A stretch of 64,000 nt of DNA from Anaerolineae bacterium (lineage in GTDB: Bacteria > Chloroflexota > Anaerolineae > JAAYZQ01): NCBI GenBank assembly GCA_041300865.1, contig JBFYTF010000036.1:34604-98603 (forward strand), in the 5' to 3' direction. This document shows, one piece after another, positions 1,112-25,405 of this stretch. The stretch's first letter is position 1. Each line of letters starts with the position of its first letter. A program made the position numbers and the translations under genes. The notes under the pieces are model-generated. The model had not been told where the DNA came from, searched no databases, and saw only the letters and a program-made list of their open reading frames with translations.

Positions 1112-1187
1112 TCCCGAAAGGTGTCTACAGCCCCGGACACATGCTGTCGACCGCGCCGTCGACTCTATCTCCCCAGGCAAGCTTCCG

Positions 1188-2396
1188 TCAACGGGGCACC
1201 AGGGCAATGCACTCCGCGGGGCAGACATCGGGGCACAGGCCGCAGCCGTAGCACTTTTCCGTGTCCACCGTCGGATAGCCGTCCGCGTCCATGACGTAGG
1301 CCCGGTGCCCGCCGTCGTCGCACGAGATCACGCAGCGGCCGCACTTGGTGCAGCGGCCCTTGTCCACCAGGGCCACGGCGTGCTTCACCGGCCTCAGGGC
1401 CGAGTGCGGCACGATGTTGGGCAGCGCCCTGCCCACGAGCTCCGCGGGTGATCTCATACCCTTTGACTCCAGGTAATAGCTCAGTCCCTCCTTGAGGTCC
1501 GCCACAATATCGTAACCATACAGCATGACCGCCGTGCAGAACTGGACAAGCGTCGCACCCGCGGCCATGTACTCGGCGGCATCGTGCCACGTGGTTGCGC
1601 CGCCACTGGCTGCCACCTTCAGATCCTGCCCGGTGCCCAGTTCGGCCAGATTGCGCAGCTCAAAGGGTTTCAGGTGCGCGCCCACCATGCCGGCGAACGT
1701 CCCCTTGCTGTCGATGGTCGGCAGCGGCGCGAACGTGTCAAGGTCGATGCCGATCAGCCCGTGGCGGGAGTCGCAGGCACACAGGGCCATGGCCCCTGCT
1801 TCCTTGACGGCCCTGGCGATGCTGACGATGTGGGTGACGTCGCCTGTCAGTTTCGGGACCACGGGAAAGCCGTCCGCCGCTTCGACGATCCAGCTCACGA
1901 TCCGGTGGGCTTCTTCCGGGATCTGGCCGATCATGAAGTGCAGCCCTTCGACCGGCGAGTCTGTCGGGCACGACATGGACACCTCCAGGTAGTCGGCCCC
2001 CACGTCAATGGACCGGCGCGTCAGGGTCTGCCACGACTCTTTGGTGGTGCCCCAGATGCTGGTGGCCACAATCTTTTCCGGGAACTCGGCCTTGAGGAGC
2101 CGGATGGCCCGCTCCATCTCGTCCATGTGGAACTCGGATATGTTGTCGATGTTGCCCAGGCCCATGAGCTGCCCCGCGGACCGCGTGCCGGCGATGCACG
2201 GGTAGGCAATGTCCACGACATAGTCCTCCATGGACGTCGTCTTGAGCACGGCGCCGGCCCAGCCGGCCCGAAACGCATCGCGCACCATCTCGTACGTGTC
2301 TGAAGGCGGCGCCGAGGCCAGGATGAACGGATTCTCGAACCGCAAACCGCAATATTCGACCGACAGATCAACGTCCGGAACCTGATAAATCGCCAT
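1188..2396 (-). CDS. preA: NAD-dependent dihydropyrimidine dehydrogenase subunit PreA-like (DHOD-type TIM barrel plus 2x[4Fe-4S] ferredoxin domain)
   Basis: N-terminus is MAIYQVPDVDLSVEYCGLRFENPF. C-terminal motifs are CTKCGRCVISC and CYGCGLCPDVCP. AGGAGG lies upstream of the ATG at 2396 (the ORF track starts at 2423). Confidence 0.85.
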   Translation of the reverse strand: MAIYQVPDVDLSVEYCGLRFENPFILASAPPSDTYEMVRDAFRAGWAGAVLKTTSMEDYVVDIAYPCIAGTRSAGQLMGLGNIDNISEFHMDEMERAIRLLKAEFPEKIVATSIWGTTKESWQTLTRRSIDVGADYLEVSMSCPTDSPVEGLHFMIGQIPEEAHRIVSWIVEAADGFPVVPKLTGDVTHIVSIARAVKEAGAMALCACDSRHGLIGIDLDTFAPLPTIDSKGTFAGMVGAHLKPFELRNLAELGTGQDLKVAASGGATTWHDAAEYMAAGATLVQFCTAVMLYGYDIVADLKEGLSYYLESKGMRSPAELVGRALPNIVPHSALRPVKHAVALVDKGRCTKCGRCVISCDDGGHRAYVMDADGYPTVDTEKCYGCGLCPDVCPAECIALVPR

Positions 2397-2413
2397 GTTT
2401 CCTCCTTGCCCTG

Positions 2414-3775
2414 CTACCCGCACAAGTATTTGTGTATCGCCAGGGCTACCTGCTTTCCCTCAGCGATGGATTGCACCGCGGTGCGCTGCTTCTGCCCGGC
2501 CAGGATGTCGCCCGCGGCATAGATGCCCGGCTCCGACGTCCTGCCTGTCTCGGGATCGACCAGGACGCAGCCATTGCGGGCCGTCTCCAGGCCCGCCACA
2601 CAGCGCAAGAATCCCTCGTCCGGCCGCTGGCCGATGGCGATGACGACCGTGTCGGCCGGCATGACCAGCGTGGACCCGGGCACGTCGACGACGTTGCCCC
2701 GCTCCCACGAGCCCGGCACCTTCCACGCGACGCGCACGCCCTCCAGGGCCACGACGTGCCCGTCCTTGCCCAGGATGCGGCTCGGCCGCACCCGCGAGTT
2801 GATCTGCACCCCCTCTTCGAGCGCCTGCCGCTTGTCGTTCTCGAAGGCATCCATCTCGGCGGGTGTTCGCCGGCTGGTGACGTTGACCGTTTCGGCCCCC
2901 AGCCGCAGCGCGCAGCAGGCCGAGTTCAGCGCCGCGCTGCCGCCGCCGACGACGATCACGTTCTTGCCCACTTTTACTTTGCTGGCGGTGTCGAGCCCCC
3001 GGGCAGCGCGCAGGATGTCCAGCGCCGTGTAGACCCCGGCCAGGTCCTCGCCCTCGATGCCCAGCGAGTATGAAGCCTGCAGGCCCACGGTCAGAAGCAC
3101 GGCGCCAAAGCCCTGCTCCAGAAGGTCAGCCGGGATGAGGCTCTCGTTGACCGGCGTGCCGAGCCTGAGCTCGACGCCCAGATCGCGCACGAGCTGCACT
3201 TCGTATTCAACCACCTCGCGCGGCAGCTTGAACGGCGGGATGACGCTGATGAGAGCACCGCCGGCCTGCTCCTCCTGCTCCAGGACCGTAACCGCGTGGC
3301 CCAACTCCCTGAGCTTGACCGCCGCAGCCAGCCCTGCCGGGCCTGCGCCGACAACCGCCACCGGCGGCGCCGTGATGGGCTGCACGGCCAGGGGCCGGGC
3401 GCCGGCTACCATCTCCCAGTCTGTAAGAAAGCGCTGCAGCGCGCCAATGCGGATCGGATCGGTCAGAGCCTGGCTGCGACAGCGCTCCTCGCACAGGAAC
3501 TCGGTCGGGCACACCCGGCCGCACACGCCGGCCAGGATGTTCTCCTCTCGCAGCAGCCGGACCCCGCCGCGGTAATCGCCAAAGCGGATGCGCCGGATAA
3601 AGCCCCGGACGTCGATGCCGGCCGGACAGCCCTTGGTGCACGGCGCTTCGGCGCACATCAGGCACCGGTTCGCCTCGAAGGCGGCCTGAGTCCGGTCATA
3701 GCCTCGATAGACCTCATCGAAACCCTTCACTCGCTCGGACACGTCTACCAGAGTGGCTTTCATCGCTACGCTCAT
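2414..3775 (-). CDS. preT: Dihydropyrimidine dehydrogenase subunit PreT-like (glutamate-synthase small-subunit family, Fe-S/FAD/NAD)
   Basis: Cys clusters CLMCAEAPCTKGCP and CGRVCP. Two Rossmann motifs, VAVVGAGPAGLAAA and VIVVGGGSAALNSA. The start could be 3775 or 3832. Confidence 0.8.
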   Translation of the reverse strand: MSVAMKATLVDVSERVKGFDEVYRGYDRTQAAFEANRCLMCAEAPCTKGCPAGIDVRGFIRRIRFGDYRGGVRLLREENILAGVCGRVCPTEFLCEERCRSQALTDPIRIGALQRFLTDWEMVAGARPLAVQPITAPPVAVVGAGPAGLAAAVKLRELGHAVTVLEQEEQAGGALISVIPPFKLPREVVEYEVQLVRDLGVELRLGTPVNESLIPADLLEQGFGAVLLTVGLQASYSLGIEGEDLAGVYTALDILRAARGLDTASKVKVGKNVIVVGGGSAALNSACCALRLGAETVNVTSRRTPAEMDAFENDKRQALEEGVQINSRVRPSRILGKDGHVVALEGVRVAWKVPGSWERGNVVDVPGSTLVMPADTVVIAIGQRPDEGFLRCVAGLETARNGCVLVDPETGRTSEPGIYAAGDILAGQKQRTAVQSIAEGKQVALAIHKYLCG

Positions 3776-3798
3776 TGCCCTATGCTCCCTTTCTGTCG

Positions 3799-5025
3799 TC
3801 AGTCTCCGTTCGGACTCGCCGGTTCCTGCCACTTCCCCCAGCCGGCCGCGCCCAGGTCGGGGCTGCCGCCGGCAACCACCTCGCGACCTCGCACGAGGGT
3901 GGAAACGATTCTGCCCTTCAGCCGCAGGCCGGCGTACGCGGTCAAGTCGCTGCGCCCGTGGCGCGGCAGGCCGGCAACCTCCTCGTGGTCCGGGTCAAGC
4001 AGGACCAGGTCGGCGTCGCTGCCCACCTGGACCGCTCCCTTGCGCGGGTACAGGCCCAGCACGCGCGCCGGGCCGGAGCTCAGCAGCCGGCACAGGTCCG
4101 CCCAGGAGATTCTGCCCGGCTCCACGCCGTAGGCCACCACCAGGCGCAGCATCGTCTCCAGGCCCGGAAAACCGGGCAGCCCGTGCTCGTCCTTTTCCTG
4201 GCGCGTGTAGGAACAGTGATCGGTGCCGATGGTCTGGATCCGGCCCGCTCTGATCTCGGGCCAGAGGTCGGCCGCTTCGATGGGCGGGTTCACGTTGCAG
4301 CCCGGCCGGCCCCTGGTCAGCTCCCAGAGAAGATACTGGGGGCAGGTCTCCAGCGTCACGCGCCCGGCGCCCAGCCCGGACACCACCTGGCTAAAACGCT
4401 GGTGGGGCACGTGCAAGATGTGCACCTGCCCGGAACCCTGCGTGCAGGCGTGGGCCGCGATGGCGGCGTAATCATCCATCTTTTCCACGTGCACGAGCAC
4501 CTGGTGCCCGCGGGCCATCGCCCGCTTGACCAGGTCCAGGCCGTCGCCCGCCCGGGCACCCAGTCCGGAGGCGGCCATAAAGACCTTGACCGTCCTGGTC
4601 GTGGCTGCCGCCAGCTGCTCGGTGGAGCGCACCACGGTGTGCACCACGAAATCGCACAGCGACTGCTGCTCCAGGGCCGCGACCTTTTCCTCGAGCTCGA
4701 CCTCGAAGCGGGTGCCCGCCGGATAGGCAAAATCGCCCAGGGTGGTGACCCCGCCCGCCACGGCGGCGGCCGACTCGCCCTCGAACAGGCCGGCCGTGCC
4801 CAGCGAGGAGCGCAGGTGGGTGTGCAGGTCGATCGCTCCCGGCAGCACGATGGCATTCCCGGCCTCCAATATGCGCCTGGCTGCCAGCGGCAGATGGTCG
4901 GCCAGGGCCGCGATCCTGCCCGCCTCGACGGCCACGTCCATGGGCAAGAGCGCCCCATCAGGCACCACAACCCGGCCGCCCTTGATCAGCAGATCTACCA
5001 CAGGGTTCATCTCCGCGGCGGTCAC
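3799..5025 (-). CDS. Cyclic amidohydrolase (dihydropyrimidinase / hydantoinase / dihydroorotase family)
   Basis: Motifs DLHTHLRS (HxH), ETCPQYL and GTDHCSY. The GTG start overlaps the upstream stop (GTGA); an alternative ATG lies at 5010. Confidence 0.8.
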   Translation of the reverse strand: MTAAEMNPVVDLLIKGGRVVVPDGALLPMDVAVEAGRIAALADHLPLAARRILEAGNAIVLPGAIDLHTHLRSSLGTAGLFEGESAAAVAGGVTTLGDFAYPAGTRFEVELEEKVAALEQQSLCDFVVHTVVRSTEQLAAATTRTVKVFMAASGLGARAGDGLDLVKRAMARGHQVLVHVEKMDDYAAIAAHACTQGSGQVHILHVPHQRFSQVVSGLGAGRVTLETCPQYLLWELTRGRPGCNVNPPIEAADLWPEIRAGRIQTIGTDHCSYTRQEKDEHGLPGFPGLETMLRLVVAYGVEPGRISWADLCRLLSSGPARVLGLYPRKGAVQVGSDADLVLLDPDHEEVAGLPRHGRSDLTAYAGLRLKGRIVSTLVRGREVVAGGSPDLGAAGWGKWQEPASPNGD

Positions 5026-5957
5026 ACTGCGGGCCGGGCGTGCAGGTCGCAGCTCCGCCCGGCCTTGATCACCTGGCCGGGAAAGTCCATGTTCAGGACC
5101 TTTTCCGCCCGGCGGACGGCCTCCAGCAGCGCCGGCAGGTCGATCCCGGTGTCGATGTCCATCTCGCTCAGCATGTGCACCATGTCTTCAGTGGCCACGT
5201 TGCCGGCAGCGCCGGGCGCAAAGGGGCAGCCGCCAAGCCCACCGAACGAGGCCTCGAAGCGGCCGATGCCTGCCTGCAGCGCGGCCAACAGGTTGGCGGC
5301 ACCAATCCCCCGCGTGTTGTGAAAGTGCATGACGACGTGCTCCGCGCCCAGCGCCTGGCGCGTCTCGCAGGCCACGTACGCCACCTGCCTGGGATTGGCC
5401 ATCCCGGTCGTGTCGCACAGGTTCAGCTCGACACAGCCCATCTCCAAGAGCCGGCGGCCGATCTCCAGGACGCGGGCCACGGGGACGTCCCCTTCGAAAG
5501 GGCAGCCAAAGACGGTCGACATACTGGCCCGGACGTGCACACCCGCCTCGCGGGCCACGGCCAGGACCGGCCCGAAGCCTGCCAGCGAATCGGCGATGGA
5601 CATGCGCACATTGCTCTGGTTGTGCGACTCGCTGGCGGACACAATGAGGTTCAGCATGCCGATGCCGGCCTCGATGGCGCGCTCCGCCCCCCTCAGGTTG
5701 GGCACCATGGCAAAGCAGGCACAGCGATCCTTGTCGACGCCCTGGACCACCTCCGTCGCGTCGCGCATCTGTGGCACCGCTTTAGGGTGCACGAAGGAGG
5801 TCACCTCCATGCGCCGGATACCGGCAGCGATCAGCGAGTTGATGATCTGCACCTTGTCTGCTGTCTCGATCCAGCCCGGGAGGATCTGAAACCCGTCCCG
5901 CGGGCCCACCTCGATGATCTCGACGCTCTGCGGCAGCGTGTCTTCCCAACCGGGCAT
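5022..5957 (-). CDS. HMG-CoA lyase-like (DRE-TIM metallolyase) protein
   Basis: Motifs EVGPRDGFQ and HFHNTRGIGAAN. A GGGGA RBS lies before the ATG at 5957 (the track starts at GTG 5969). Confidence 0.8.
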   Translation of the reverse strand: MPGWEDTLPQSVEIIEVGPRDGFQILPGWIETADKVQIINSLIAAGIRRMEVTSFVHPKAVPQMRDATEVVQGVDKDRCACFAMVPNLRGAERAIEAGIGMLNLIVSASESHNQSNVRMSIADSLAGFGPVLAVAREAGVHVRASMSTVFGCPFEGDVPVARVLEIGRRLLEMGCVELNLCDTTGMANPRQVAYVACETRQALGAEHVVMHFHNTRGIGAANLLAALQAGIGRFEASFGGLGGCPFAPGAAGNVATEDMVHMLSEMDIDTGIDLPALLEAVRRAEKVLNMDFPGQVIKAGRSCDLHARPAV

Positions 5958-5972
5958 GATCGTCCCCACTTC

Positions 5973-6878
5973 TTACAGCCGTGACCGGCCCAGGATCTCG
6001 CAGGCGACCCGGCCGATGTCGCCAAAGTGCTCCACCACCCGCACGCCCGCCTCCCGCAGGGCAGCACGCTTGGCCTGGGCGCTGCCCAGGCCGCGGTAAA
6101 TCATCGCGCCGGCATGTCCAAAGCGGACGTTGGGCCGGGAGTGGACGCCGGCCACGTAGGCGACCATCGGCTTGGTGAAGCCGCCGCCCTTGATAAACTC
6201 CGCGGCCTCCTCCTCCATGGTCGTGCCGATCTCGCCGAAGAAGGCGACCATTTCTGTCTCTGGATCCTTTTCGAACAGGGCCAGAAAATCGCGCAGGGTC
6301 GTGCCGACGAACGTATCGCCGCCCATGCCGACGGCCGTGGTCTGGCCCAGGCCTGCCTCGTTGATATAGTAGGCCAGGGTCGTGGTGTTGCCCCCGCTGC
6401 GGGACAGAACACCCACCGGTCCCGGGCGAAAGAACTCCCGCGCCGACTTCGAGTTGCCGCCGATCATGCCGACGAGGGCCTTGCCGGGGCTGATGAGTCC
6501 AATGGAGTTGGGCCCGATCACGTAGGCGCTGTACCGGCGCGCATAGGCGATCACCTCCAGCATGTCCTGCTGCGGCACGCGCTCGGGGTGCAGGCCGATC
6601 ACCCCGATCCCGGCATCCAGGGCCTCGATGGCTGCCAGCCTGGCTGCCTGCGCCGGCACAAAGATGGCCGAAGTGTTGAGCTCCGGATGCCGGTCTTTGG
6701 CTTCGAGAACGGTGTCATAGATCGGCACACCGTCGACCACCTGCCCGCCTTTGCCCGGCGTGACACCGGCCAGCACGCGGGTGCCATAGCTCGACATCAA
6801 CCGGATGCGCAGGAGGGCCTCGCGACCGGTAGCTCCCTGGACGACGACGCGGGTGTCGCTATCGACAAGTATGGACAC
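5973..6878 (-). CDS. Succinyl-CoA-synthetase alpha-subunit-like (CoA-binding, phosphohistidine) protein
   Basis: [11 protein letters not shown] at the N-terminus and a GHAGAMI phosphohistidine loop. GTG start preceded by GAGGTGA. Confidence 0.85.
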
Positions 6879-6881
6879 GTT

Positions 6882-7205
6882 TCACCTCTCGTAAACCACG
6901 GGGTCGGCCAACAGGTGCAGGTACCGGTCAAGCCCCTCCAGGGGCAGCAGGATCGAAATCGCTTTCTGTCCGAACAGCTCGCAGTCGAGCTCGCAGCCCA
7001 GGCATTCGACACAGCCCCCGCGCTCGATCTCGGCGAGCGACCAGCGCAGGCCTGGCACGAGGCGCGCCTCGTCGAGGACCAACGGGCCGCCCTGCACCTC
7101 GCACACCTGCAGGCAGGGCCTCGATTCGCACCCGGCACAGAAGTCCAGGTCGATGCACACCACGCCACCGGAACGGACTTTGAATTCGAGCTTTTCGCCA
7201 ATCAC
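6882..7205 (-). CDS. Small 2x[4Fe-4S] ferredoxin-like protein inserted between the ligase beta and alpha genes
   Basis: About 107 aa. Cys motifs CAGCESRPCLQVCE and CVECLGCELDCE. The GTG start overlaps the upstream TGA (GTGA). The longer 140-aa form in the ORF track overlaps the upstream gene. Confidence 0.6.
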   Translation of the reverse strand: MIGEKLEFKVRSGGVVCIDLDFCAGCESRPCLQVCEVQGGPLVLDEARLVPGLRWSLAEIERGGCVECLGCELDCELFGQKAISILLPLEGLDRYLHLLADPVVYER

Positions 7206-8476
7206 GACATGCCTCCTACGCTGGCCTGCCATTCTCCGTGCAGCGTGTGAAAGGCGTGGGCCACGTCCCGTTCCGTGGCGTCGCGCCCCAGGACGCGGAC
7301 CCACTTGCCGGCACTGATGCCGTGCTCGCCCAGGAGCCGGATAGCATCGCCGTCCCAGGCGCCGCGGAAGGCGAGCACGGTCGGAATGCTGGGCTGGCCT
7401 CCCGTGCCGGGATACAGCTCCTTCAGAGCCTTGATGATCCCCCGCGCGGTGTTGTCCAGCTGCTGGCTGGAGACGCAGGATTCAAAGACGTAGCCCTGGA
7501 TTCCGGGCTGGGAGAAGATGACCTTGGTGATGCGGTACAGCTTGGACGCCACCGGGTTGCCCGAGCTGTCGCAGAAATTGACGGGGTAGTAGCCCAGCGG
7601 CACCAGCTCGTCCATGAGGGTGAGGCTCACCCCCGCGCCGACGCAGTCAAAGCCGATGGGCACGTAGTGCTGCTCCTGGCAGAAGGAGAGATCGGGATCG
7701 ATCTGCACAAAGTGCACCGTGCCCCGGTGGTCCCCGGCGTCGATCGTGCCCGCAATGCGCTCGAGGAGCGTCGAGCTGCGGTCGCCGGCGTCCTCTGCAA
7801 TCTCGATGCCCAGGCCGGCCTGCCGGCTCAAGGCATCGCCGTCGATGTCCACGCGCGCGTCGAGAGCAACCGCGCCCGTGGGCGTCAGAGCCAGCGGGTT
7901 AATCTCGAGGAGCTTGCAGTCGTAGCGGCGGTAGACCTCGTACATCTGGCACAGAATGCGCGCCACGTCGAGCTTTTGCTTGGAAGTGATCTGGCTCAGC
8001 GAACGCAGCAGGTTCAGGGCGTCGTAGAGCTGGATCCCGCGCAGGATGTCTACGGGCCACTTGTGCAGGGCATCCGGCCGGCTGGCAACAACCTCCTCAA
8101 TGTCCATTCCTCCCGACTCGCAGACCATGATGGCCGGTGCCCTGGCAGCGGGATCGGCTGCTACCCCAACGTAGAGCTCCTGCTCGATCTGCAACCGCTG
8201 TTCCAGGAGCAGAGCGCCCGGCTTGTGACCTTGTATCGAGCGCGAGAACATGTCCGCCGCGACCTGGAGCAGTTCTGCCTCACACTCGGCGGATTGAATG
8301 CCGCCCGCCTTGCCCCGCTTGCCGGCGTAAATCTGCGCTTTGACCATGACCGGATAGCCCAGCTCGGCGGCGGCGGCGCGGGCCTCTTGCAGGTCGTGAA
8401 CCACGCGGCCGGCAGGCGTGGCGATGCCGGCCCTGCGCAAGAGATCCTTGCCATGATGTTCCAGTAGTTTAGCCAC
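7202..8476 (-). CDS. Succinyl-CoA-synthetase beta-subunit-like (ATP-grasp) protein
   Basis: (M)AKLLEHHGKDLLRRAGI and VMVKAQIYAGKRGKAGG resemble the SucC N-terminus. GGGGGAGGGG lies 7 nt before the GTG at 8476. Confidence 0.85.
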   Translation of the reverse strand: MAKLLEHHGKDLLRRAGIATPAGRVVHDLQEARAAAAELGYPVMVKAQIYAGKRGKAGGIQSAECEAELLQVAADMFSRSIQGHKPGALLLEQRLQIEQELYVGVAADPAARAPAIMVCESGGMDIEEVVASRPDALHKWPVDILRGIQLYDALNLLRSLSQITSKQKLDVARILCQMYEVYRRYDCKLLEINPLALTPTGAVALDARVDIDGDALSRQAGLGIEIAEDAGDRSSTLLERIAGTIDAGDHRGTVHFVQIDPDLSFCQEQHYVPIGFDCVGAGVSLTLMDELVPLGYYPVNFCDSSGNPVASKLYRITKVIFSQPGIQGYVFESCVSSQQLDNTARGIIKALKELYPGTGGQPSIPTVLAFRGAWDGDAIRLLGEHGISAGKWVRVLGRDATERDVAHAFHTLHGEWQASVGGMS

Positions 8477-8518
8477 GGACAAACCCCTCCCCCACGAAAG
8501 TTCGAAGCGCGTCACGAT

Positions 8519-9688: not shown

Positions 9689-9690
9689 GA

Positions 9691-10206: not shown

Positions 10207-10215
10207 ACGCTCCAC

Positions 10216-17113: not shown

Positions 17114-17181
17114 GTCTCCACTCCGTGCCACGCACACCAGGTCCATGTGCGCGTGGCACCGATGTCTCTGCCCTCGGACGT

Positions 17182-18408
17182 CTACTGTTGCTTGTCGAGT
17201 GCCTTCAGGGCCTGTCCAAAGATGTCGAGCGCCTGCACTACCTGCTCGCGGCTGATCACCAGCGGCGGTGAGACGCGCACGGTCGTGCCCGAGTTGACGG
17301 TCCAGCACACGACGGCGCCCAGCTCGTTCACCTTGCCGACGAACGTTGGCGTGTCCTCTTCGCGCTGCATCTCCATGGCCGTCAGAAGGCCGCGGCCCCG
17401 CGCCTCTTTCACCAGGTGCGGGTACTGGTCGCGCAGCGCATTCATCCCGGCCAACAGCTCGGCACCCCGGTCGCGGGCGTTTTGCAGCAGGTTTTCCTCT
17501 TCGATGACCTTGATGGTAGCCACCGCGGCGGCACAGCAGACGGGGTTGCCGCCGAAGGTGGTGCAGTGCACCAGGGGTGGATCGGAGAACTCGCACATCA
17601 GATCCCGCGAGGCAACCACGCCTCCCAGGGGCATGCCCGAAGCGATGCCTTTGGCCACGGGCATGATGTCCGGGACGACGCCATAGTACTCCGAGGCGAA
17701 CCACTGGCCGGTGCGCCCAAACCCGGTCTGGATCTCGTCAACGATGAGGAGCGCGCCGAACTCGTGGGCGAGGTCGCGAAGGGCCGGCAAGAAGTCGTCG
17801 GTGCAGGCGCGGATGCCGCCCTCGCCCTGGATGGGCTCGACCAGGATGGCCGCGACGTCGTCGTCCATCGCGGCGCGGGTGGCGTCGATGTCGTTGAAGG
17901 GCACCTCTACCGCCCAGGGATAGAGGGGCTCGAAGGGATCTTTGTACAGGCGCTTGGAGCTCACCGACAGGGTCATGTAGGTCCGGCCGTGAAACGCCCG
18001 CTGGAAAAAGACGAGCTTTTTCCGGCGCGTGGCCTTCATCGCCAGCTTGATGGAGCCTTCCGCGGCCTCGGCGCCGCTGTTGGTAAAGAAGGTGCTCTCC
18101 AGGTTGCCGGGTGCCCGCTCGGCGATGAGCTGCGCCAGTTCCGCCTGGATGGGATAGATAAAGTTGCCAAAGGCGTTGCCGTGGATGATCTGGCTCGCCT
18201 GTTGGCAGATGGCCTCCACGACCTTGGGGTGCGAATGGCCCGTCGCCGTGACGGCGATGCCGCCGATGAGGTCCAGGTACTCCCTGCCCTCGCCCGTCTT
18301 GAGGATGGCGCCTCTGCCTTCGACGGCCAGAATGCTCTTGGCGGTGGGAAAGAGCTGCGCGACGTACTTGCTGTCAATCTCACGTATCTTTTGCAGATCT
18401 TGAGGCAT
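17182..18408 (-). CDS. Class-III PLP aminotransferase (acetylornithine / GABA / beta-alanine type)
   Basis: Motifs LIVDEIQTGFGRTGQWFA and MPVAKGIASGMPLGG. Confidence 0.85.
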   Translation of the reverse strand: MPQDLQKIREIDSKYVAQLFPTAKSILAVEGRGAILKTGEGREYLDLIGGIAVTATGHSHPKVVEAICQQASQIIHGNAFGNFIYPIQAELAQLIAERAPGNLESTFFTNSGAEAAEGSIKLAMKATRRKKLVFFQRAFHGRTYMTLSVSSKRLYKDPFEPLYPWAVEVPFNDIDATRAAMDDDVAAILVEPIQGEGGIRACTDDFLPALRDLAHEFGALLIVDEIQTGFGRTGQWFASEYYGVVPDIMPVAKGIASGMPLGGVVASRDLMCEFSDPPLVHCTTFGGNPVCCAAAVATIKVIEEENLLQNARDRGAELLAGMNALRDQYPHLVKEARGRGLLTAMEMQREEDTPTFVGKVNELGAVVCWTVNSGTTVRVSPPLVISREQVVQALDIFGQALKALDKQQ

Positions 18409-18473
18409 TGCTTCTCTCCTTTTCTATGGTTCCACGGTCCAATGTCGCTTGGAGCGTGCCTTGCTGCCGCTCC

Positions 18474-21400
18474 CTACTGTTTCTTCTGCAACAGCCCGAG
18501 GAGCACTTTGTCTCTCGTCGCCGGCAGCGAAGTGATGCGCACGCCAATGGCGTTGTCGATAGCATTGATCACCGCGGGGGCGGTGGGCATGTAGGCTCCC
18601 TCGCCCACCCCCTTGGCCCCGAATGGGCCGCGGGGATGGGGATCCTGAACGATGATGGCCGTCACCTCCGCCGGGTTGGTGCTGCGCGGGATGGCAAGCT
18701 TGTGCAGGCTGTCGGTGAGGATCCGGCCGTCGACTTGCAGGAATTCCTCGCCGAGGGCATAGCCCAAGCCCATGACCACGCCGCCCTCGATCTGTCCTTC
18801 GACCGACGTCGGGCGGATAGGCGCCCCCGTGTCGTGGGCGGCAATGACCTTCAGCACGTCCACCTGGCCCGTTTTCTCGTCCACTTCGACGACCGCCACC
18901 TGGCAGCCATAGCAGAAGGCGGGATAGTTGGCATAGTCGTCGTCGCTGAGGCCCTTTTCCTGGCGCTGCTGAAGCGACAAGATGCGATAGGTAGGCGCGG
19001 GCACGTAGTGGTGGGCCACCTGGACCTGTTCACCGCGTTCGCGCGCCGCAGCTGCCAGGTCCGCCAGGTCTCCCAGCCGCTCCTCCCGCTCCAGGTCGAT
19101 CAGCTCTCCGTCCGCGGTGAGCTTGATGCGGGCAGCATCGGCGTTGTACACCTGGGCCGCGTACTGGAGCAGCTGGGCGTGGAACATGGTGCTCACCTCA
19201 AACGTGGCCTGGCCCGTAATGTGGGTCTGGCGCGACGCCGCGGTGATACCGCCATCCCTTCCTTCGCGCGTATCGCCGGTCACAAAATGCACCCGGTCGT
19301 AGTGGATGCCCATCACCCGGGCCGCGATCTCGCACATGGCCGAGTTGGATCCCTGGCCCAGGTCTATGGCTCCGTGGCGCAGCATGAGGCTGCCGTCCTC
19401 TTGCAGCTCCAGGGAGACGTGGACGCTGTCGTCGTTGCCGATGCCCAGGCCCACGTTCTTCATGCCGGCCGCCACGCCGATGCCCAGGCGTTTGCCGGGT
19501 TTCTGCTCGGGCAGCCGCCAGCGCCGGAGCTCTGCCTCTGCCGCTTCCAGCACCAGCTTGGCACCGACGCTTTGCTTCAGGGTCTGTCCCGTAACGAGCG
19601 TCGAGCCCTCCTGGTACATGTTCATGCGCCGCACGTCAAAGGGATCCAAGCCCAGCACCTGGGCGAGGCGGTCGACCTGCGACTCCATGGCGAACGTGAT
19701 CTGCTGCGCGCCAAAGCCACGCATCGCCCCGCAGGGCACGTTGTTGGTCCGCACCGAGACGCCGGTCACCCGGACGTTGGGGATCTCGTAGGGACCTGAG
19801 GAAAAGACCGTGGCCTGCTCGAGCACGTCGTCGGAGGTGGACCGGTAGGCACCACCATCGGCCACTAGCTGGGCCTGCAGGGCAACGATCTTGCCCTGGC
19901 GCGTCGCGCCGAGCTTGTAGTGCATCCAGAAGGGGTGCCGCTTGACGTGCATGCGGATCGATTCCGTCCGGTCCAGGACCAGTTTCACAGGCCGGCCCGT
20001 CAGGTAGGTGCCCAGGGCCAGGAACGGCTGGACCGTCAGGTCCATCTTGCCGCCAAAGGCGCCGCCCACGGGCGTCTGGACCATGCGCACCCTTTCTATT
20101 GGCAGGCCAAGGATATCGGCCAGCTGCATCCGGTCGCCCGGCGGCCATTGGGTCGCTTGATAGACGGTGACACAGTCGCCGTCCATGACGCCGATGCCGC
20201 CCTCGGTCTCGAGGAATGCGTGCTCGATGGCTTGCGTGCGATAGTCATCCTCGATGACGATCTCGGCCTGGGCAAAGCCGGCCTCGACGTCGCCCTTTTC
20301 CACCAGGGTGCGGTGAAACACGTTGTTTTCGCCCTTGAGCACCGGCGCCCCGGGCTCCAGGGACCGCTGCGGGGTGAACAGGCCAGGCAGGGGATGATAA
20401 TCTACCTTGACCCGGGCGGCCGCCGCTGCCGCCGCCTCTTCCGTCTCGGCGTACACCGCAGCCACCGGCTCGCCGACGAACAGCACCCTGTTTTCGGCCA
20501 GGACGGGCTGGTCGTAGCCCATGGAGCCAAAGATGTTCTGGCCGGGAACGTCCTTGTGGGTGATGACCTTGACCACGCCCGGCACGGCCTCGGCCGCGGT
20601 GGTGTCGATGCCCAGGATCTGGGCATGGGGGTGCTCGCTCCACACGATCTTGCCGTAGAGCATGCCCTCCAGCTGCATGTCGCCGGCGTACACCTCGCGC
20701 CCCGTCACCTGAGCAAGGGCGTCCTTGCGCGGCAGGGCTCGCCGGGTCAGCTCTTTTTTGTCGCCGCGCATCACGGCCGCGGCGTCCTGGATGGCCTCGA
20801 TGATTTTGACATAACCCGTACAGCGGCAGTAGTTGTTGCCCAACCCTTCCTTGATCTCTTGCTCGGTCGGGTCGGGGATATCGCGCAGCAGGGTAAGGGC
20901 GGCGAGGACCATGCCCGGGGTGCAATAGCCGCATTGGACGGCATCGTGGACCATGAACGCCTGCTGCACGGGGTGCAGGTTGTCCGGGTTTGCCACACCC
21001 TCGATGGTCAACACCTCGCGACCGTGGGCCTTGGCAGCGGGAAAGAGGCAGGAGACCACCGGCTGGCCATCGACCAGGACGGTGCAGGCGCCGCACTCTC
21101 CCTCGTCGCAGCCGATCTTGGTGCCGGTGAGGCCCAGGTCTTCGCGGAGGAGATGTCCCAGCGTGGCACTCGCCCCTCCTTCGACCGTGCGGATCTCACC
21201 GTTGAGACGGAACGTGATGGTGCCGCCCGCGGCGGGCTCGCTTGCCGCGCCCGACCAGGCCCGGTCCCAGGCAAAACGGCCGGCGATGGTCTGCTGCTCG
21301 CCCGACCTGGCAGCCTGGACGGCGCGCTGGATGGCACGCTGGATGAGGACCTGCAGCACCACCTCGCGGTACTCGGCGGTGGCACGCAGCGCACTGGTGC

Positions 21401-22172
21401 GCACCGTGCACACCAGGGCCGCTTCGTCGGCGGCGATGGCATAGTTCTCGTCGGTGCACGCTTCGCCTGCCAGCCAGTCCTCGGCGCACGTAGCGCGGAA
21501 GGGAGTGTCGGCCACGGGTCCCAGCGAAATGCGGATCCAGGCCAAGTGGTCGAGGTCCTCCGTCAGCTCCAGGTCCACCGCGCAGCAGGCAATGGGCAGC
21601 GACATGACCTCCCGCTTGGCCAACCGCTCGTAGGCCGAGGCCTGCCGGGGCTTGCGCCTGCGCCAGCGAAAGCGGGTGATCATCTCCCGGCTGGCATCGA
21701 GGTGCGAGCGCCCAGGCCCGGCAAAGAGGCTCGAAACGGGCAGCCACTGCCGGCCACCTTTGCCCGCCACCTCGGCCTCGGCGTCCAGCGCCAGGAGGGC
21801 GATGCTGCCGTCACCCGCCGGCTGGGCGGTCACGACGTTTCCGGCCAACGTGCCGACGTTCTGGACTGACCAGGCACCGACGTGGTGCGCCGCCTCGGCC
21901 AGGACGTACGCCTCGCAATTGACCAGGGGCGAGGTCCACAGCTGGTGATACGTGGCGTTCGCCCCCACGACGACATAGTCCCCCTCGTAGCCGATGGCAT
22001 CGATGCCGGGGATGCGCGTCGTGTCGACCAGGCACTGGGGCGCGAACTTGCCCTGTCGCACATCGAGAACCAGGTCGGTGCCGCCGGCAATGAGCCGCGC
22101 CTTGCCCTGCCACTGCTCCAACGCCGACAGCGCGTCGTCTACGGAAGTGGCCAGGTAATATTTCTCCCACAT
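18474..22172 (-). CDS. Single-polypeptide xanthine-dehydrogenase-family molybdoenzyme (FAD, 2Fe-2S and Moco domains fused)
   Basis: 1232 aa. A CoxM-like FAD domain (about aa 1-288; [12 protein letters not shown]) is followed by a 2Fe-2S domain (about aa 318-468; [24 protein letters not shown]), then a Moco domain from about aa 480. Confidence 0.85.
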
Positions 22173-22192
22173 GCTGCCTCGTGCCTCCTAAT

Positions 22193-23488
22193 CTAGTGCT
22201 GGCGCCCGTTTCGCGCGCCTTGCCACAGCCGGGCAATGGTCGCCATTGCCTGCTCTCGTAGCTCCTCTTCGTCTGCGGTCTGGACCTGGCCATCGGCCAC
22301 CACCACCCGGCCATCGACGATCACGTGGCTCACGTCGCCTCCCGCCGCGCCCACCACCAAGTGATAGACGGCGTTTTCGGGCAGCAGCGGCGACGGTGCC
22401 GAGTTGCGCAGCAGGACCATGTCGGCCAGGGCGCCGGGCCTCAAGGCGCCGGCATCGAGGTGGAGCGCGCGCGCCGCCCGCGTGGTGTGCAGGCTCAGGA
22501 CGTCCTCTGCCGAGACCTCGCCGGGAGTCTGCAGCGAGTGCAGCAGCAACGTCGTGCTGAGGTTGACAAAGGGGTCAAAGGCCCGCACAAAACCATCGTC
22601 ACCCAGGCTGGCATTGACCCCGGCTTTGAGCATCTTGCTCAACGGAGCGGCTCCGGTGCCAATCTCCATGTTCGACACCGGGTTGTGGGACACCTGCGTG
22701 CCCGTCTCGGCCAGCACGCCGATCTCCTCGTCGTCGAGGTGAACGCACTGCGATGCGATCGTATCCTGGTCGAGAACTCCGAGCTCGTGCAGGTAGTGCA
22801 CCGGTCGCTTGCCAAATCGCTGCAGCGTATCCTGCACGTGGTAGGTGCCCTCGGAGACGTGGAGCTGGAAGAGGGCGTTGTGACGGCAGGCGATCTCTTT
22901 TGCCTGGCGAATGTAGGGACCACTGCACGAGAACGTGGTGTGCACGCTCATCACGCCGCGCACGCGCCCCCGCAGCGACAAGATCCGCTCGTTTTCCTCG
23001 AGCAGTTTCTGGGCGATCTCTTCTCCTGCACGTTGGGTGGCCTCGTTGGAGACAAAGGCCCGGGCGCCGGTTTTCGCTACGGCTTCCGCCTCGGCGAGCA
23101 TGAAGCCCGGTGCCGCGTAAGGGGACTCCATGACGTCGCAAAAGCAGGTAAAGCCGCTCTTGAGGTGCAGCAGCGAGGCATAAGCGGCGAGGCTGGCCAC
23201 GTCCTCGGCGCTAAGCATGTCTTCGACAAAGGGCCACCAGTACTCTTTCAGGAAGGGCCAGAACCCCGCCGGTGCCGGTACCGGGTGGCCGTAGGCCACC
23301 AGGCCGTGCAAATGGGTGTGGGTGCTGATCAGCCCCGGCATCAAGATGCCGTCGACGTACAGATCGGTCTCCTGGTCTCTCGCGCCGGCCAGGACACTAA
23401 CGATCTTGTCGCCCTCGATCTCGACCACAGGATCGCGGATCACGCCCTGTTCGGTCATCGTCACCGCCAGCCGCGCACCAACCTTCAT
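22193..23488 (-). CDS. Metal-dependent amidohydrolase (SsnA / chlorohydrolase / aminohydrolase family)
   Basis: Motifs LISTHTHLHG and QLHVSEG. AGGAGG lies 6 nt before the ATG at 23488. Confidence 0.8.
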   Translation of the reverse strand: MKVGARLAVTMTEQGVIRDPVVEIEGDKIVSVLAGARDQETDLYVDGILMPGLISTHTHLHGLVAYGHPVPAPAGFWPFLKEYWWPFVEDMLSAEDVASLAAYASLLHLKSGFTCFCDVMESPYAAPGFMLAEAEAVAKTGARAFVSNEATQRAGEEIAQKLLEENERILSLRGRVRGVMSVHTTFSCSGPYIRQAKEIACRHNALFQLHVSEGTYHVQDTLQRFGKRPVHYLHELGVLDQDTIASQCVHLDDEEIGVLAETGTQVSHNPVSNMEIGTGAAPLSKMLKAGVNASLGDDGFVRAFDPFVNLSTTLLLHSLQTPGEVSAEDVLSLHTTRAARALHLDAGALRPGALADMVLLRNSAPSPLLPENAVYHLVVGAAGGDVSHVIVDGRVVVADGQVQTADEEELREQAMATIARLWQGARNGRQH

Positions 23489-23525
23489 AGTTTCCCTCCT
23501 TTCTCTCCCTGTGCCCGCTCTCGGC

Positions 23526-25235
23526 TCACGCCGGCTGGAACAGGCGAGCCAGGTCCAGCTGGGCGAGTTTTTCTGAGCAGGGACGGCCCTGCTCATCCCA
23601 GCCCCGGATGCGGTAATAGGCGGCCATCCCCTCGCGGTAGACGTCCGGCTTGAGCATGCCGTCCATGATGCGACGGGGCAGGGTGTCGTGCGAGGCGTCG
23701 ACGCCGCGCTTGACGTTGAGCAGGCGCTCCAGGTTGTAGATCCGCTCGCCGGCTACATCAAGCTCCTCGTCACTGAACTCGGTGCCCAGGACGGCGCTCA
23801 GCGCGGAGGCGTAGAACGGGCGCAGCGTTCCGGCGAGGAACGTGCAGACGATGAGCGAGTCGCGGACGCAGCCGGCATCGTGGTAGTTCGCGACCATTTG
23901 GGCCAACTCTACCCCGGAGAACTCGGTCCCCGACAGCTCGTCGGCGACCGTCCAGGCCCGGCTGTGACAGCCGCCGCGGTTGGCCGTGCTGTAGGAGATG
24001 GCCATGCCCGTGAGCTTGCGCGGGTCGTAGGCGGCCAGCTCCAGCCCCTTCACCTGCATGGCGTAATCCACTCCCAGGCTGCGGGCCGCAGCCCGAGTGC
24101 CCTGGCCCAGGAGGTCGCCCTCAGCCTGCCGGTAGCCGATCTTGTGCACCAGGTCCAGGATGTTGGAAGGATCGTCCAGGGTGCCGGTGTATTCCCGGTA
24201 GAAGGCCACCGCGTTGCCGGTAGAGATGGTGTCGACACCCAGATCGTTGCAGAGGTTGTTCGCCCGGGCGATGAGGGCATAGTCGTCGACGCGGTTGTCA
24301 CCGCCAAAGGCCCACACCGTTTCGTATTCGGCCGCTTCCAGCTCCAGGCCATCGACCCGGACGTGGAGACGACAGCGGACGGGACAGGAGGGGCAGGTCG
24401 TGCGCTTGTAGACAAACTCCTCGACGATGCGCTCGCCGTAGAGGTTCGCAGCCCCGGCGAAATAGCGCTCCCGGTGATTCCCCGTGGGGAAGGCGTGGAA
24501 CTCGTTGACGGGCGCCACCAGGTTCGGGGTGCTGATGGGGCCTTGCACCTCCATCAAGAAGCTCGACTCGCGGATGGCGCGCAGTGCATCACGGCTGACG
24601 ACCTTCAGGCGGTCCGGATCGGCGACAGGGATCTCGCTGTTGCCTCGCGCGACGATGGCCTTGACGTTCTTGCTGCCCAGGATGGCGCCCATCCCGCACC
24701 GGCCGGCTGAATGGCTCTCGTCGCCGCGCACGTTGGCCATGGCCACCAGCCTCTCGCCGGCCGGGCCGATGACCACTGCTCGCAGGTTGCCCTTTTCCTC
24801 CCGCTCAAGGATGGTCCGTGCCTGGGAGACCGTCAGGCCCCACAGGTCAGGACGCGGAAGGACCTCGACCTTGTTCTCGTCGATATAGACAACCGAGGGC
24901 TGCGGGGCCTGTCCTTGGAGCACGAGAGCGAGGGTATCGGTGCGGGCCAGGGCCGGGCCAAAGTCACCGCCAAGCCAGCTGCCGGCGCACAGCCCCGTGA
25001 GGGGAGATACGCCAAAGAAGCACGCGCGGTTGGCTCCGGGGAAGCCGGTGGCGGTGAGGCCGCCGGTGGCGATGATCAGCGGCAGATCCGGGTCCAGGGC
25101 CGGCAGGGCCAGGTCGGCGCCGGCCATGAGGCGTGCTCCCAGGCCGAGGCCGCCCAGGTACTGCCCTTGCATGGTTGGATCCACGGCTTGGCTCTGAGGC
25201 GACCCAGAACAGAGATCCAGACAGCGAATGTGCAT
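23526..25235 (-). CDS. Aldehyde:ferredoxin oxidoreductase (AOR) family tungsto/molybdopterin enzyme
   Basis: AOR N-domain (LGGLGLGARLM, IIATGGLTATGFPGANR) and a CPSCPVRC cluster motif. AGGGGGA lies before the ATG at 25235. Confidence 0.8.
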   Translation of the reverse strand: MHIRCLDLCSGSPQSQAVDPTMQGQYLGGLGLGARLMAGADLALPALDPDLPLIIATGGLTATGFPGANRACFFGVSPLTGLCAGSWLGGDFGPALARTDTLALVLQGQAPQPSVVYIDENKVEVLPRPDLWGLTVSQARTILEREEKGNLRAVVIGPAGERLVAMANVRGDESHSAGRCGMGAILGSKNVKAIVARGNSEIPVADPDRLKVVSRDALRAIRESSFLMEVQGPISTPNLVAPVNEFHAFPTGNHRERYFAGAANLYGERIVEEFVYKRTTCPSCPVRCRLHVRVDGLELEAAEYETVWAFGGDNRVDDYALIARANNLCNDLGVDTISTGNAVAFYREYTGTLDDPSNILDLVHKIGYRQAEGDLLGQGTRAAARSLGVDYAMQVKGLELAAYDPRKLTGMAISYSTANRGGCHSRAWTVADELSGTEFSGVELAQMVANYHDAGCVRDSLIVCTFLAGTLRPFYASALSAVLGTEFSDEELDVAGERIYNLERLLNVKRGVDASHDTLPRRIMDGMLKPDVYREGMAAYYRIRGWDEQGRPCSEKLAQLDLARLFQPA

Positions 25236-25376
25236 AACCGTTCCCCCTTGATCTACGCTACTCATCTTCGAGCTTGAGCACGGACTGGGAAAGACGCTTG
25301 CGGGCCGGGAACAGACCTATGGGCCAAAGAGCGTTGCACGCATGGCTGACAAGCCGGCACCGGGCAGACATTGTAT

Positions 25377-25405
25377 ATTCTACAATATATACTGGCTGCT
25401 GTCAA
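25377..25405 (-). promoter_or_regulatory. Near-consensus sigma-70-type promoter (TTGACA-17-TAGAAT) with an overlapping palindrome
   Basis: On the minus strand, TTGACA is at 25405-25400 and TAGAAT at 25382-25377. ATTGTA-N5-TACAAT lies at 25370-25386. This is an AT-rich island in GC-rich DNA, about 140 nt upstream of the AOR start. Confidence 0.7.

Follow-up and report, generated by a model that had tools for sequence, protein, structure and literature searches.

A nineteen-gene cluster of Anaerolineae that joins N-heterocycle and dicarboxylate enzymes, and a candidate catabolic route

The 64-kb window analysed here, the whole 64,000-nucleotide stretch of contig JBFYTF010000036.1 to which all positions refer, is a minus-strand catabolic island of an Anaerolineae (Chloroflexota) bacterium, and it contains a unit of 19 intact minus-strand genes (25235–1188) that joins parts of three known routes in a way that no described pathway explains. 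We give an even chance to the reading that this unit is an operon, conserved in Anaerolineae, for the catabolism of a pyrimidine-like ureido N-heterocycle that carries or yields a substituted-succinate skeleton, by an undescribed route. Several of its enzyme specificities are probably new, and full-text literature searches found no description of this gene combination. The genes were defined by open reading frame (ORF) listing, start choice and scanning with Pfam and NCBIfam, and public gene calls on the same cluster in another Anaerolineae locus (L102; GCA_041300615.1) give identical genes and sizes. The scans confirmed all of the family assignments made in an earlier, sequence-only reading of this DNA; three of its labels, 'PrpD', 'PrpF' and 'ornithine-type carbamoyltransferase', mislead as to function, the corresponding equivalogs or motifs not being matched. 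In order of transcription the genes are:

23526–25235, minus: aldehyde:ferredoxin oxidoreductase (AOR) family protein (AFOR_N 179 bits, AFOR_C 321 bits)
22193–23488, minus: deaminase-like amidohydrolase of the COG0402/TRZ-ATZ type, AmhA (Amidohydro_1)
18474–22172, minus: fused Mo-hydroxylase of 1232 aa with FAD, two [2Fe-2S] and Mo-cofactor domains (eight Pfam domains)
17182–18408, minus: class-III (omega-amine) aminotransferase (Aminotran_3 363 bits; no equivalog cutoff reached)
15956–17113, minus: tandem isochorismatase-family cysteine hydrolase (two Isochorismatase domains; start from the public call in L102)
15120–15953, minus: CN-hydrolase of the N-carbamoyl-amidase/nitrilase superfamily (CN_hydrolase 124 bits)
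13955–15115, minus: PreA-like reductase with DHO_dh and 4Fe-4S dicluster (Fer4) domains, without an adjacent PreT
12536–13921, minus: MmgE/PrpD-family protein, here called PrpD-like (Pfam domains)
11516–12508, minus: carbamoyltransferase resembling ornithine carbamoyltransferase (OTC) but of a non-ornithine subfamily, here OTC* (motif alignment)
10216–11487, minus: aconitase-family hydratase large subunit of the LeuC/HacA/DmdA type (Aconitase 327 bits; HacA-family subfamily model passed)
9691–10215, minus: aconitase-family hydratase small subunit of the LeuD/DmdB type (LeuD/DmdB family model 205 bits, cutoff 109)
8519–9688, minus: (methyl)itaconate delta-isomerase orthologue with PrpF fold, Mii (444 bits to 3g7k, 287 to PrpF)
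7202–8476, minus: SucC-like ATP-grasp subunit of a dicarboxylate-CoA ligase (ATP-grasp_2; SucC model 207 bits, cutoff 370)
6882–7205, minus: 107-aa Cys-rich ferredoxin-like protein between SucC and SucD (C-x2-C-x5-C-x3-C and C-x2-C-x2-C-x3-C; weak Fer4_21)
5973–6878, minus: SucD-like CoA-binding subunit (CoA_binding and Ligase_CoA; SucD model 286 bits, cutoff 336)
5022–5957, minus: HMG-CoA-lyase-like (DRE-TIM) lyase (HMGL-like 154 bits; HMG-CoA lyase subfamily model 345 bits, cutoff 246)
3799–5010, minus: cyclic amidohydrolase of the hydantoinase/dihydropyrimidinase (DHPase)/dihydroorotase (DHOase) class (Amidohydro_1)
2414–3775, minus: PreT/GltD-like FAD/NAD(P) Fe-S subunit (Fer4_20 and Pyr_redox_2)
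1188–2396, minus: PreA, the catalytic subunit of dihydropyrimidine dehydrogenase (DPD) (PreA equivalog 361 bits, cutoff 335)

Linkage of nitrogen and acid genes

Genes for PreA/PreT, a cyclic amidohydrolase, a carbamoyltransferase, Mii and LeuCD occur together in three gene arrangements and in two phyla, with 33–60% identity across the arrangements and a PrpD-like gene in two of the three. The first arrangement is that of the window, which is present almost whole and in the same order in five Anaerolineae loci (L003, L006, L008, L023 and L102; 62–86% identity by tblastn of the window proteins); relatives of the PrpD-like protein at 75–86% identity all come from metagenome-assembled genomes of Anaerolineae or Anaerolineales. 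In the second, found in Anaerolineae L014 and L015 (~60% identity), a nitrogen operon with the order XDH (xanthine dehydrogenase-type FeS and Mo subunits)-PreA-PreT-AmhA-IclR-carbamoyltransferase is divergent from LeuC-LeuD-Mii-SucC-x-SucD-HMGL, where x is the Cys-rich gene, followed by another amidohydrolase. The third, from a metagenome scan with the Mii-like protein, is a compact cluster in six loci (L053, L054, L055, L057, L066 and L078) with the order LacI, NCS1 nucleobase/allantoin-type permease, CN-hydrolase, carbamate kinase, Mii, PrpD-like, a ~190-aa protein, LeuC, LeuD, PreA, PreT-like, amidohydrolase and OTC*. Its carbamate kinase passes the ArcC cutoff, its PreA scores 462 bits (cutoff 335), the amidohydrolase is allantoinase/DHOase-like, and its OTC* is 53% identical to that of the window and has the same motifs. 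Exact-sequence look-up places this cluster in Ruthenibacterium sp./Oscillospiraceae on at least 1000 public contigs, of which many come from the human gut, and two related contigs carry a human gut label; the Ruthenibacterium cluster has no Mo-hydroxylase. The ~190-aa protein is Cys-containing and TudS-like (L053 12662–13240, L078 8887–9462, also in L055, L057, L066 and L083), with a weak full-length match, below cutoff, to the 2-thiouracil desulfurase family PF04463 (E = 1.5e-4).

The nitrogen and acid genes are interleaved. The OTC* gene of the window sits between those for the PrpD-like protein and LeuC, and in Ruthenibacterium carbamate kinase and OTC* bracket the run Mii-PrpD-TudS-like-LeuCD-PreA-PreT. 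Because such interleaving is hard to explain as an accident and recurs in two phyla, we favour a single pathway. A ureido ring is favoured because the carbamoyltransferase is conserved in the nitrogen-linked clusters, and a substituted-succinate skeleton because of the Mii/LeuCD/PrpD-like set; purines cannot supply such a skeleton. Purine, pyrimidine and pyridine rings, which the sequence-only reading had treated as all plausible, are therefore not equally so.

Each substrate in the proposed pathway is predicted from the observed families and motifs. The base would probably be imported by the Bmp-type ABC system encoded upstream, and in an Anaerolineae-specific front end the nicotinate-dehydrogenase-like Mo-hydroxylase and deaminase-like AmhA would turn precursor rings into a dioxo form. 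PreT/PreA and the stand-alone PreA-like reductase, clear members of their families, would reduce a ring C=C bond, and the cyclic amidohydrolase would open the ring to give an N-carbamoyl amino acid. Phosphorolysis by OTC*, as its motifs predict, would release carbamoyl phosphate, from which a carbamate kinase, such as the gut-bacterial versions encode, would gain one ATP; the CN-hydrolase and tandem isochorismatase may be hydrolytic decarbamoylases or amidases, and the class-III aminotransferase and AOR may handle an omega-amine and the resulting aldehyde. At the back end the amino-(di)carboxylate would become an itaconate-type C5 dicarboxylate, with the PrpD-like enzyme catalysing an epimerisation, elimination or decarboxylation on the succinate backbone. 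The Mii orthologue would then move the double bond (itaconate to citraconate type), LeuCD would hydrate the citraconate-type product to a citramalate-type acid, the SucC-ferredoxin-SucD ligase would form its CoA ester, and the HMG-CoA-lyase-like enzyme would cleave this to pyruvate and acetyl-CoA, or to propionyl-CoA in the case of a methylated analogue.

Several observations weigh against this pathway. Among abundant natural ureido heterocycles we know of none that has a skeleton of the methylsuccinate type, and the step from ring to C5 acid is predicted from enzyme families. No carbamate kinase was found in the 64-kb window by tblastn. The related locus L008 is without the CN-hydrolase and DHPase-like genes, L014 and L015 are without the PrpD-like gene, and the carbamoyltransferase of L014 is only 44% identical to that of the window and has different motifs. 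PreA, which exceeds the uracil/thymine equivalog cutoff, points to plain pyrimidines, whose monocarboxylate products misfit Mii/LeuCD; and the operon structure is read from DNA sequence, not from transcripts. Moreover, a stand-alone acid operon is present in Anaerolineales L020 (4780–14788), with the order GntR-PrpD-LeuCD-Mii-SucC-x-SucD-HMGL-(family III CoA-transferase), and the PrpD-to-HMGL run is also found without nitrogen genes in L022 and L025 and in part in L024, so the acid module has an independent life. The logic put forward in the sequence-only reading, from ring activation through opening and deamidation to the conversion of acids to CoA esters, is compatible with the data; its description as a 'complete pathway' is unproven, and both the carbamate kinase result and the solitary acid modules count against it.

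The stand-alone operons also fit a mosaic super-operon, in which self-sufficient modules for purine or pyrimidine base degradation and for an itaconate/mesaconate/citramalate-type acid pathway are co-transcribed and have no common intermediates. Such a mosaic would agree with the frequent occurrence of Mii and LeuCD pairs without nitrogen genes on other contigs, with the SucC-x-SucD trio that elsewhere adjoins methylmalonyl-CoA mutase genes, with the variable gene content among relatives, and with the make-up of the entire window as one minus-strand catabolic island. It has difficulty with nitrogen and acid genes that are interleaved rather than juxtaposed, both in the window and in Ruthenibacterium, and with an association that is kept in three arrangements and two phyla despite the sequence divergence noted above. 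We regard it as doubtful, although a serious contender. The L020-type operon is itself a candidate for a CoA-independent itaconate/C5-dicarboxylate degradation route, which to our knowledge is undescribed; an AOR-like gene lies divergent from it in L020.

The anaerobic fates of N-heterocycles are still being worked out, and identification of the substrate would define a new energy-yielding (carbamoyl phosphate to ATP) nucleobase fermentation and a probable new free-acid itaconate/citraconate/citramalate route, as well as giving functions to widespread Anaerolineae genes of digesters and sediments. The core of the cluster is also present in the prevalent gut Oscillospiraceae genus Ruthenibacterium, beside bona fide PreT/PreA, the pair that inactivates 5-fluorouracil in gut bacteria.

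Ring-processing enzymes and the OTC-like subfamily

The OTC* protein scores 290.6 bits against TIGR00658, the NCBIfam model for ornithine carbamoyltransferase (cutoff 280.85), and automatic annotation therefore labels it as OTC. Aligned to the Pyrococcus furiosus OTC, it retains the carbamoyl-phosphate motifs STRTR and HPCQ but has AKSWGSL instead of DxxxSMG, HPLP instead of HCLP, and a longer loop with an invariant Arg and Lys in place of the GDGNN loop. The YAKSW motif and the additional conserved R/K loop extend across the whole subfamily, including the L053 copy, and members are found in Anaerolineae and, at ~50–55% identity, in Spirochaetales, Thermoanaerobacteraceae, Clostridiaceae, Bacilli and Oscillospiraceae. 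By these motifs OTC* is a separate, previously unrecognised subfamily that does not keep the ornithine-binding motifs DxxxSMG and HCLP, and the public annotations of its members as OTC are probably wrong. A Lys stands in place of the Asp that binds the alpha-amino group of ornithine; this and the extra basic residues suggest an acidic (di)carboxylate as co-substrate. OTC* is also well below the two YgeW models (125 and 116 bits, cutoffs 453 and 500), with 30% identity to YgeW.

Elsewhere OTC* keeps company with similar genes. In Firmicutes-type loci L018 and L019 it is found with a PreA-like gene, carbamate kinase and Tct carboxylate transporters; a DHOase-like amidohydrolase beside it is called in L018 only and not in L019. 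Another locus, L017 (4578–19200), contains three amidohydrolases, a metallo-beta-lactamase-fold protein, OTC* and a second carbamoyltransferase, together with carbamate kinase, a Bmp ABC importer and a pyridoxal phosphate (PLP) enzyme, and may encode a purine-type route in which decarbamoylation by phosphorolysis takes place twice.

The association of a dehydrogenase, a cyclic amidohydrolase, a carbamoyltransferase and a carbamate kinase is reminiscent of a module proposed by Barba et al. 2013 (PMC4016543). The four-step logic is shared, as is the position of uncharacterised carbamoyltransferase subfamilies beside dehydrogenases resembling dihydroorotate dehydrogenase (DHODH) or DPD. That paper contains neither 'aconit' nor 'isopropylmalate', the sole terms looked for, and as far as these terms go does not describe the link of OTC* to Mii, LeuCD and the PrpD-like protein.

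The remaining nitrogen enzymes can be placed by family more readily than by substrate. The Mo domain of the fused hydroxylase is, by sequence comparison, closest to the nicotinate dehydrogenase of Eubacterium barkeri: its best matches in the Protein Data Bank (PDB) are E. barkeri NdhL (328 bits) and NdhM (190 bits), one for each half, with 4-hydroxybenzoyl-CoA reductase at 326 bits and xanthine dehydrogenases at 258 bits. AmhA has methylthioadenosine/S-adenosylhomocysteine (MTA/SAH) and 8-oxoguanine deaminases as its best PDB matches and is 67% identical to the PreT-adjoining orthologue in L014. Its identification as SsnA is unsupported, with 219 bits against an equivalog cutoff of 444 and 25% identity to E. 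coli SsnA, no closer than the other amidohydrolases of the window. The cyclic amidohydrolase matches D-hydantoinases best in the PDB (among the best 60 of 76 matches) and scores 187 bits against the D-hydantoinase model (cutoff 393). Neither of these two amidohydrolases could be supported as an enamidase; their PDB matches are of the hydantoinase/dihydropyrimidinase/dihydroorotase class or COG0402 deaminases, and include no chain labelled enamidase (for the DHPase-like protein, among the same best 60 of 76). The tandem isochorismatase has distant relatives only, including N-carbamoylsarcosine amidase, RutB and biuret hydrolase, all of which act by cleaving carbamoyl or ureido groups. The CN-hydrolase has matches at superfamily level only, the best NCBIfam one being to N-carbamoylputrescine amidase, under cutoff, and the stand-alone PreA-like reductase scores 174 bits against the PreA model (cutoff 335).

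Reductive pyrimidine catabolism is the known route nearest to this part of the unit, with which it shares a PreA above the equivalog cutoff, PreT, a DHPase-class hydrolase, a CN-hydrolase and a class-III aminotransferase. It differs in that decarbamoylation is apparently phosphorolytic, via the new OTC-like subfamily, and in that the DHPase-like protein and CN-hydrolase are far under their equivalog cutoffs. Further, the unit is fused to Mii, LeuCD, PrpD-like, ligase and lyase genes, which would be superfluous for the canonical products beta-alanine and beta-aminoisobutyrate.

A second comparison is with the reductive urate (2,8-dioxopurine) pathway described in 2025, encoded in E. coli by ygeW-ygeX-ygeY-hyuA-yqeA ... 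ygfK-ssnA-ygfM-xdhD. The logic of a Mo enzyme, a flavin/Fe-S reductase, an amidohydrolase, a hydantoinase-class hydrolase and a carbamoyl-phosphate-forming carbamoyltransferase is common to both, and the comparison with the ygeW-ssnA-xdhD region that the sequence-only reading had suggested shows similarity at family level. This similarity does not extend to orthology: the unit proteins are only 25–31% identical to those of the E. coli urate cluster, YgeX, YgeY and YqeA have no BLASTP match to any window protein tested, and the SsnA and YgeW cutoffs are missed, so we discarded the idea that the unit is the orthologue of the ygeW-xdhD cluster. A divergent form of the urate pathway would pair XDH with XdhD, PreT/PreA with YgfK, the amidohydrolases with SsnA and HyuA, and OTC* and the hydrolases with YgeW and YgeY. 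Such a form gains from these family-for-family parallels, from the second XDH, further amidohydrolase and base-binding-type Bmp ABC system upstream, from the three decarbamoylase-type enzymes in the unit, and from L017, where OTC* is linked to the genes listed above. The low identities, the lack of the three homologues just named and the model scores far under cutoff stand against it, AmhA being no nearer to SsnA than the other amidohydrolases of the window are; the C5-acid module has no counterpart in the urate pathway, and the purine skeleton would furnish a C3 unit, on which neither Mii nor LeuCD nor the PrpD-like enzyme could act. We consider it quite unlikely.

The same families also mirror those of carbamoyl phosphate synthetase, aspartate carbamoyltransferase, DHOase and DHODH, as they would if the core were biosynthetic and built an orotate analogue in the manner of de novo pyrimidine synthesis. 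Carbamate kinase would then be followed by carbamoyltransferase, cyclic amidohydrolase and a DHODH-like enzyme, and LeuCD, Mii and the PrpD-like enzyme would supply the amino-dicarboxylate on which they act. The context is catabolic (uptake systems, IclR, GntR and LacI regulators, Mo-hydroxylase, AOR, amidases, CoA ligase and lyase) and PreA is of the uracil-reducing type; a biosynthetic role is hardly credible.

The acid module and candidate substrates

The Mii-like protein is 57.8% identical over 379 aa to the 3-methylitaconate delta-isomerase of E. barkeri (3g7k) and keeps K62 and C96, which are presumably the catalytic residues of that enzyme; it scores 326 bits against the PrpF equivalog (cutoff 440). 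The LeuCD-like pair passes only the broad HacA and LeuD/DmdB family models. A role of the PrpD-like protein as 2-methylcitrate dehydratase is ruled out by its 61 bits against a PrpD equivalog cutoff of 950, and a 2-methylcitrate cycle was likewise rejected, the PrpD and PrpF cutoffs being missed and no citrate-synthase-like (PrpC) or PrpB-like gene being present in the unit. The best PDB matches of the PrpD-like protein are iminodisuccinate (IDS) epimerase (142 bits) and cis-aconitate decarboxylase (134 bits), and it is 59.6% identical to the copy in the Ruthenibacterium cluster. This gene is not diagnostic when taken as a lone neighbourhood marker, because close homologues also occupy unrelated contexts, with acyl-CoA genes in L011 and with PrpD paralogues and a phosphoenolpyruvate (PEP) mutase in L012. 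The SucC and SucD equivalogs are both missed and the Cys-rich gene splits the pair, which argues against a succinyl-CoA synthetase proper. The 107-aa Cys-rich ORF is kept in all SucC-x-SucD trios found, at 42–67% identity, and because of this conservation we take it to be a real gene. The trio occurs in L014, L015 and L020, and in L016 it adjoins methylmalonyl-CoA mutase, acyl-CoA dehydrogenase and electron transfer flavoprotein (ETF) genes.

All characterised members of the MmgE/PrpD family use substrates with a succinate backbone, and a methylsuccinate isomerase from itaconate clusters was recently added to the family (PMC12290011, 2025). In those clusters itaconate and other C5 dicarboxylates are degraded by Ict-Ich-Ccl together with the MmgE/PrpD methylsuccinate isomerase (PMC12290011). 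Our unit shares with them a PrpD-family enzyme for a succinate backbone, branched C5 dicarboxylates and a probable citramalyl-CoA-type cleavage to pyruvate and acetyl-CoA. Unlike them, it would carry out isomerisation and hydration on free acids (Mii and LeuCD), with CoA added afterwards by an ATP-grasp ligase; it has no itaconyl-CoA hydratase or acyl-CoA dehydrogenase, and its lyase is of the HMGL type.

Mii and the Mo domain are the parts of the unit that most resemble the nicotinate cluster of E. barkeri, which comprises Ndh, Hnr, Ena, Hgd, Hmd, Mgm, Mii, DmdAB and Dml. Both systems are anaerobic, with hydroxylation by a Mo enzyme, ring reduction and opening by an amidohydrolase followed by an exomethylene-dicarboxylate isomerase and a LeuCD-type hydratase, and to this extent the comparison suggested by the sequence-only reading holds. 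E. barkeri also has a B12-dependent 2-methyleneglutarate mutase, Hgd and Hmd, none of which was found in the unit; neither the unit nor any other large ORF of the window has a B12-binding or mutase Pfam domain. The Pfam scan also found no isocitrate lyase (ICL)/PEP-mutase-type lyase in the unit, and with it no counterpart of Dml, the dimethylmalate lyase that makes the final cleavage in E. barkeri, where the unit has a SucCD-type ligase and an HMG-CoA-lyase-like enzyme. The unit is thus not the E. barkeri nicotinate cluster. No match to the E. barkeri enamidase structure was seen among the PDB matches listed for the two amidohydrolases, and the unit adds a carbamoyltransferase, a DPD-type PreT/PreA and decarbamoylases, none of which a pyridine route needs.

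A B12-independent variant of nicotinate or other pyridine-carboxylate fermentation would proceed by hydroxylation, ring reduction and enamidase-like hydrolysis, and then take 2-methyleneglutarate through Mii and LeuCD without a mutase to CoA ligation and a lyase. The affinities of the Mo domain and Mii with their E. barkeri counterparts would suit this variant, as would a LeuCD pair in the LeuD/DmdB family and an isochorismatase, which is the nicotinamidase family. Besides the enzymes just listed as not found, it faces the problem that a pyridine yields no ureido group, yet the nitrogen-linked clusters conserve a carbamoyltransferase and, outside the Anaerolineae, a carbamate kinase as well, and that the Ruthenibacterium cluster is without any Mo-hydroxylase. 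We think it improbable.

For a ureido ring with a substituted-succinate skeleton, the common substrates fit poorly. Uracil and thymine are chemically unsatisfying for Mii and LeuCD, with monocarboxylate products, as are biotin and allantoin; orotate gives C4 aspartate, which has no allylic hydrogen for the delta-isomerase, and purines and pteridines are without a branched C5 chain. On paper, the only nucleobase skeletons that we could map onto itaconate are those of the 7-deazapurines (C4, C4a, C7a, C5 and C6) and of the 5-carboxymethyl-uracils (C4, C5 and C6 plus CH2-COOH). A speculative proposal, to which we attach a low probability, is that the cluster is the first catabolic route for nucleobases with a methylsuccinate-type skeleton, either pyrrolo[2,3-d]pyrimidines (7-deazapurines), for example the bases of queuine, preQ0/preQ1 and archaeosine type, or the 5-carboxymethyl-uracils of tRNA wobble modifications. 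The nitrilase/amidase-type hydrolases would then act on cyano or carbamoyl side groups, the aminotransferase and AOR would turn an aminomethyl group into a carboxylate, and the deaminase-like amidohydrolase and Mo-hydroxylase would produce the dioxo ring. Two reductases would deliver four electrons, OTC* would remove the ureido group, and elimination or decarboxylation of the succinate backbone by the PrpD-like enzyme would be followed by Mii, LeuCD, ligase and lyase. If true, this would give a role to most of the 19 genes; the transcarbamylase would be a new one, specific for dicarboxylates and ATP-yielding, and itaconate would be converted to citramalate without CoA.

Operon anatomy and surroundings

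The 19 genes are tightly packed, with intergenic gaps of –4 to 68 bp, and are flanked by the following elements:

25377–25405, minus: promoter A, sigma-70-like, TTGACA-17-TAGAAT (11/12 positions match)
25371–25385, strand not assigned: palindrome TTGTA-N5-TACAA over the –10 box, candidate operator (sequence reading; single match in the window)
1080–1111, strand not assigned: G+C-rich hairpin with a 16-bp stem, probable terminator, with the convergent PreA and PAS-domain genes on either side

These features uphold the single unit between promoter A and a terminator that the sequence-only reading had drawn. There are three 11/12 promoter sites in the window (25405, 34333 and 63054), all on the minus strand, intergenic and upstream of genes, where first-order Markov simulations give an expectation of 0.08 per 64 kb. 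A scan of the window found no site of at least 10/12 inside the unit, and weak terminator-like sites within it occur at chance frequency, in agreement with the earlier statement that no strong internal promoter or terminator is present. The 1111–1080 hairpin starts 77 nt past the last stop codon and is stable (–34.2 kcal/mol, z = –4.5, none of 200 shuffles equally stable). Its stem is longer than the perfect 12 bp first noted; it has only a short U stretch and no canonical U-run, and a terminator scanner gave no call. At the other end, same-strand genes continue upstream and no terminator lies in the 55 bp that separate the –35 box from the permease stop (25461), so read-through from the 34333 promoter is possible.

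The palindrome over the –10 box may be an operator; ATATTGTA occurs in the window only at the promoter A palindrome and at the 63054 promoter. All three promoters (25377–25405, 34305–34333 and 63026–63054, minus) are near-consensus TTGACA-17-TAnAnT, each with an AT-rich block around the –10 box, and they head the AOR...PreA unit, the three-subunit XDH and Bmp ABC system, and a GntR/FCD gene, respectively. The GntR/FCD protein (62281–63126) is a candidate common regulator of the three. A riboswitch or leader RNA was dropped from consideration, Rfam giving no matches at gathering thresholds anywhere in the window, nor any at E <= 1 near the 5' UTR. A perfect 12-bp hairpin with a plus-strand T-run at 11436–11464, inside the 5' end of the LeuC-like gene, is probably no signal either, as it corresponds to quasi-palindromic codons of the conserved ILARASGQ motif and is partly kept in relatives.

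The unit does not stand alone. Immediately upstream are two permeases, an ATPase and a Bmp/PnrA-type binding protein, which together make up a Bmp-type ABC importer, and beyond these a three-subunit XDH, another amidohydrolase and a 3-hydroxyacyl-CoA dehydrogenase; the second XDH, amidohydrolase and importer share the 34333 promoter, which is nearly identical to promoter A. The adjoining Bmp protein best matches the structure 7x0r ('Lbp') and next AtzT, which binds atrazine, and 3s99, a basic membrane lipoprotein that binds purine bases. Farther upstream are a second Bmp ABC set, further amidohydrolases and aminotransferases, and the GntR/FCD regulator. The second importer set includes a 671-aa substrate-binding protein (40370–42385) with two tandem Bmp/PnrA domains (Pfam 453 bits, two stretches). 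The minus-strand run that follows (42536–56650) encodes an HDAC-like amidohydrolase, an amidohydrolase, an amine-oxidase-like flavoprotein, an O-methyltransferase, an IlvD/Edd dehydratase, two class-III aminotransferases, an OYE/Pyr_redox enoate-reductase-like protein and a URO-D-like protein, and looks like another uncharacterised nitrogen-compound catabolic block. At the opposite end of the window, converging on the end of the unit, a plus-strand gene (75–1079) encodes a possible sensor that has two PAS domains and lacks an output domain in the ORF.

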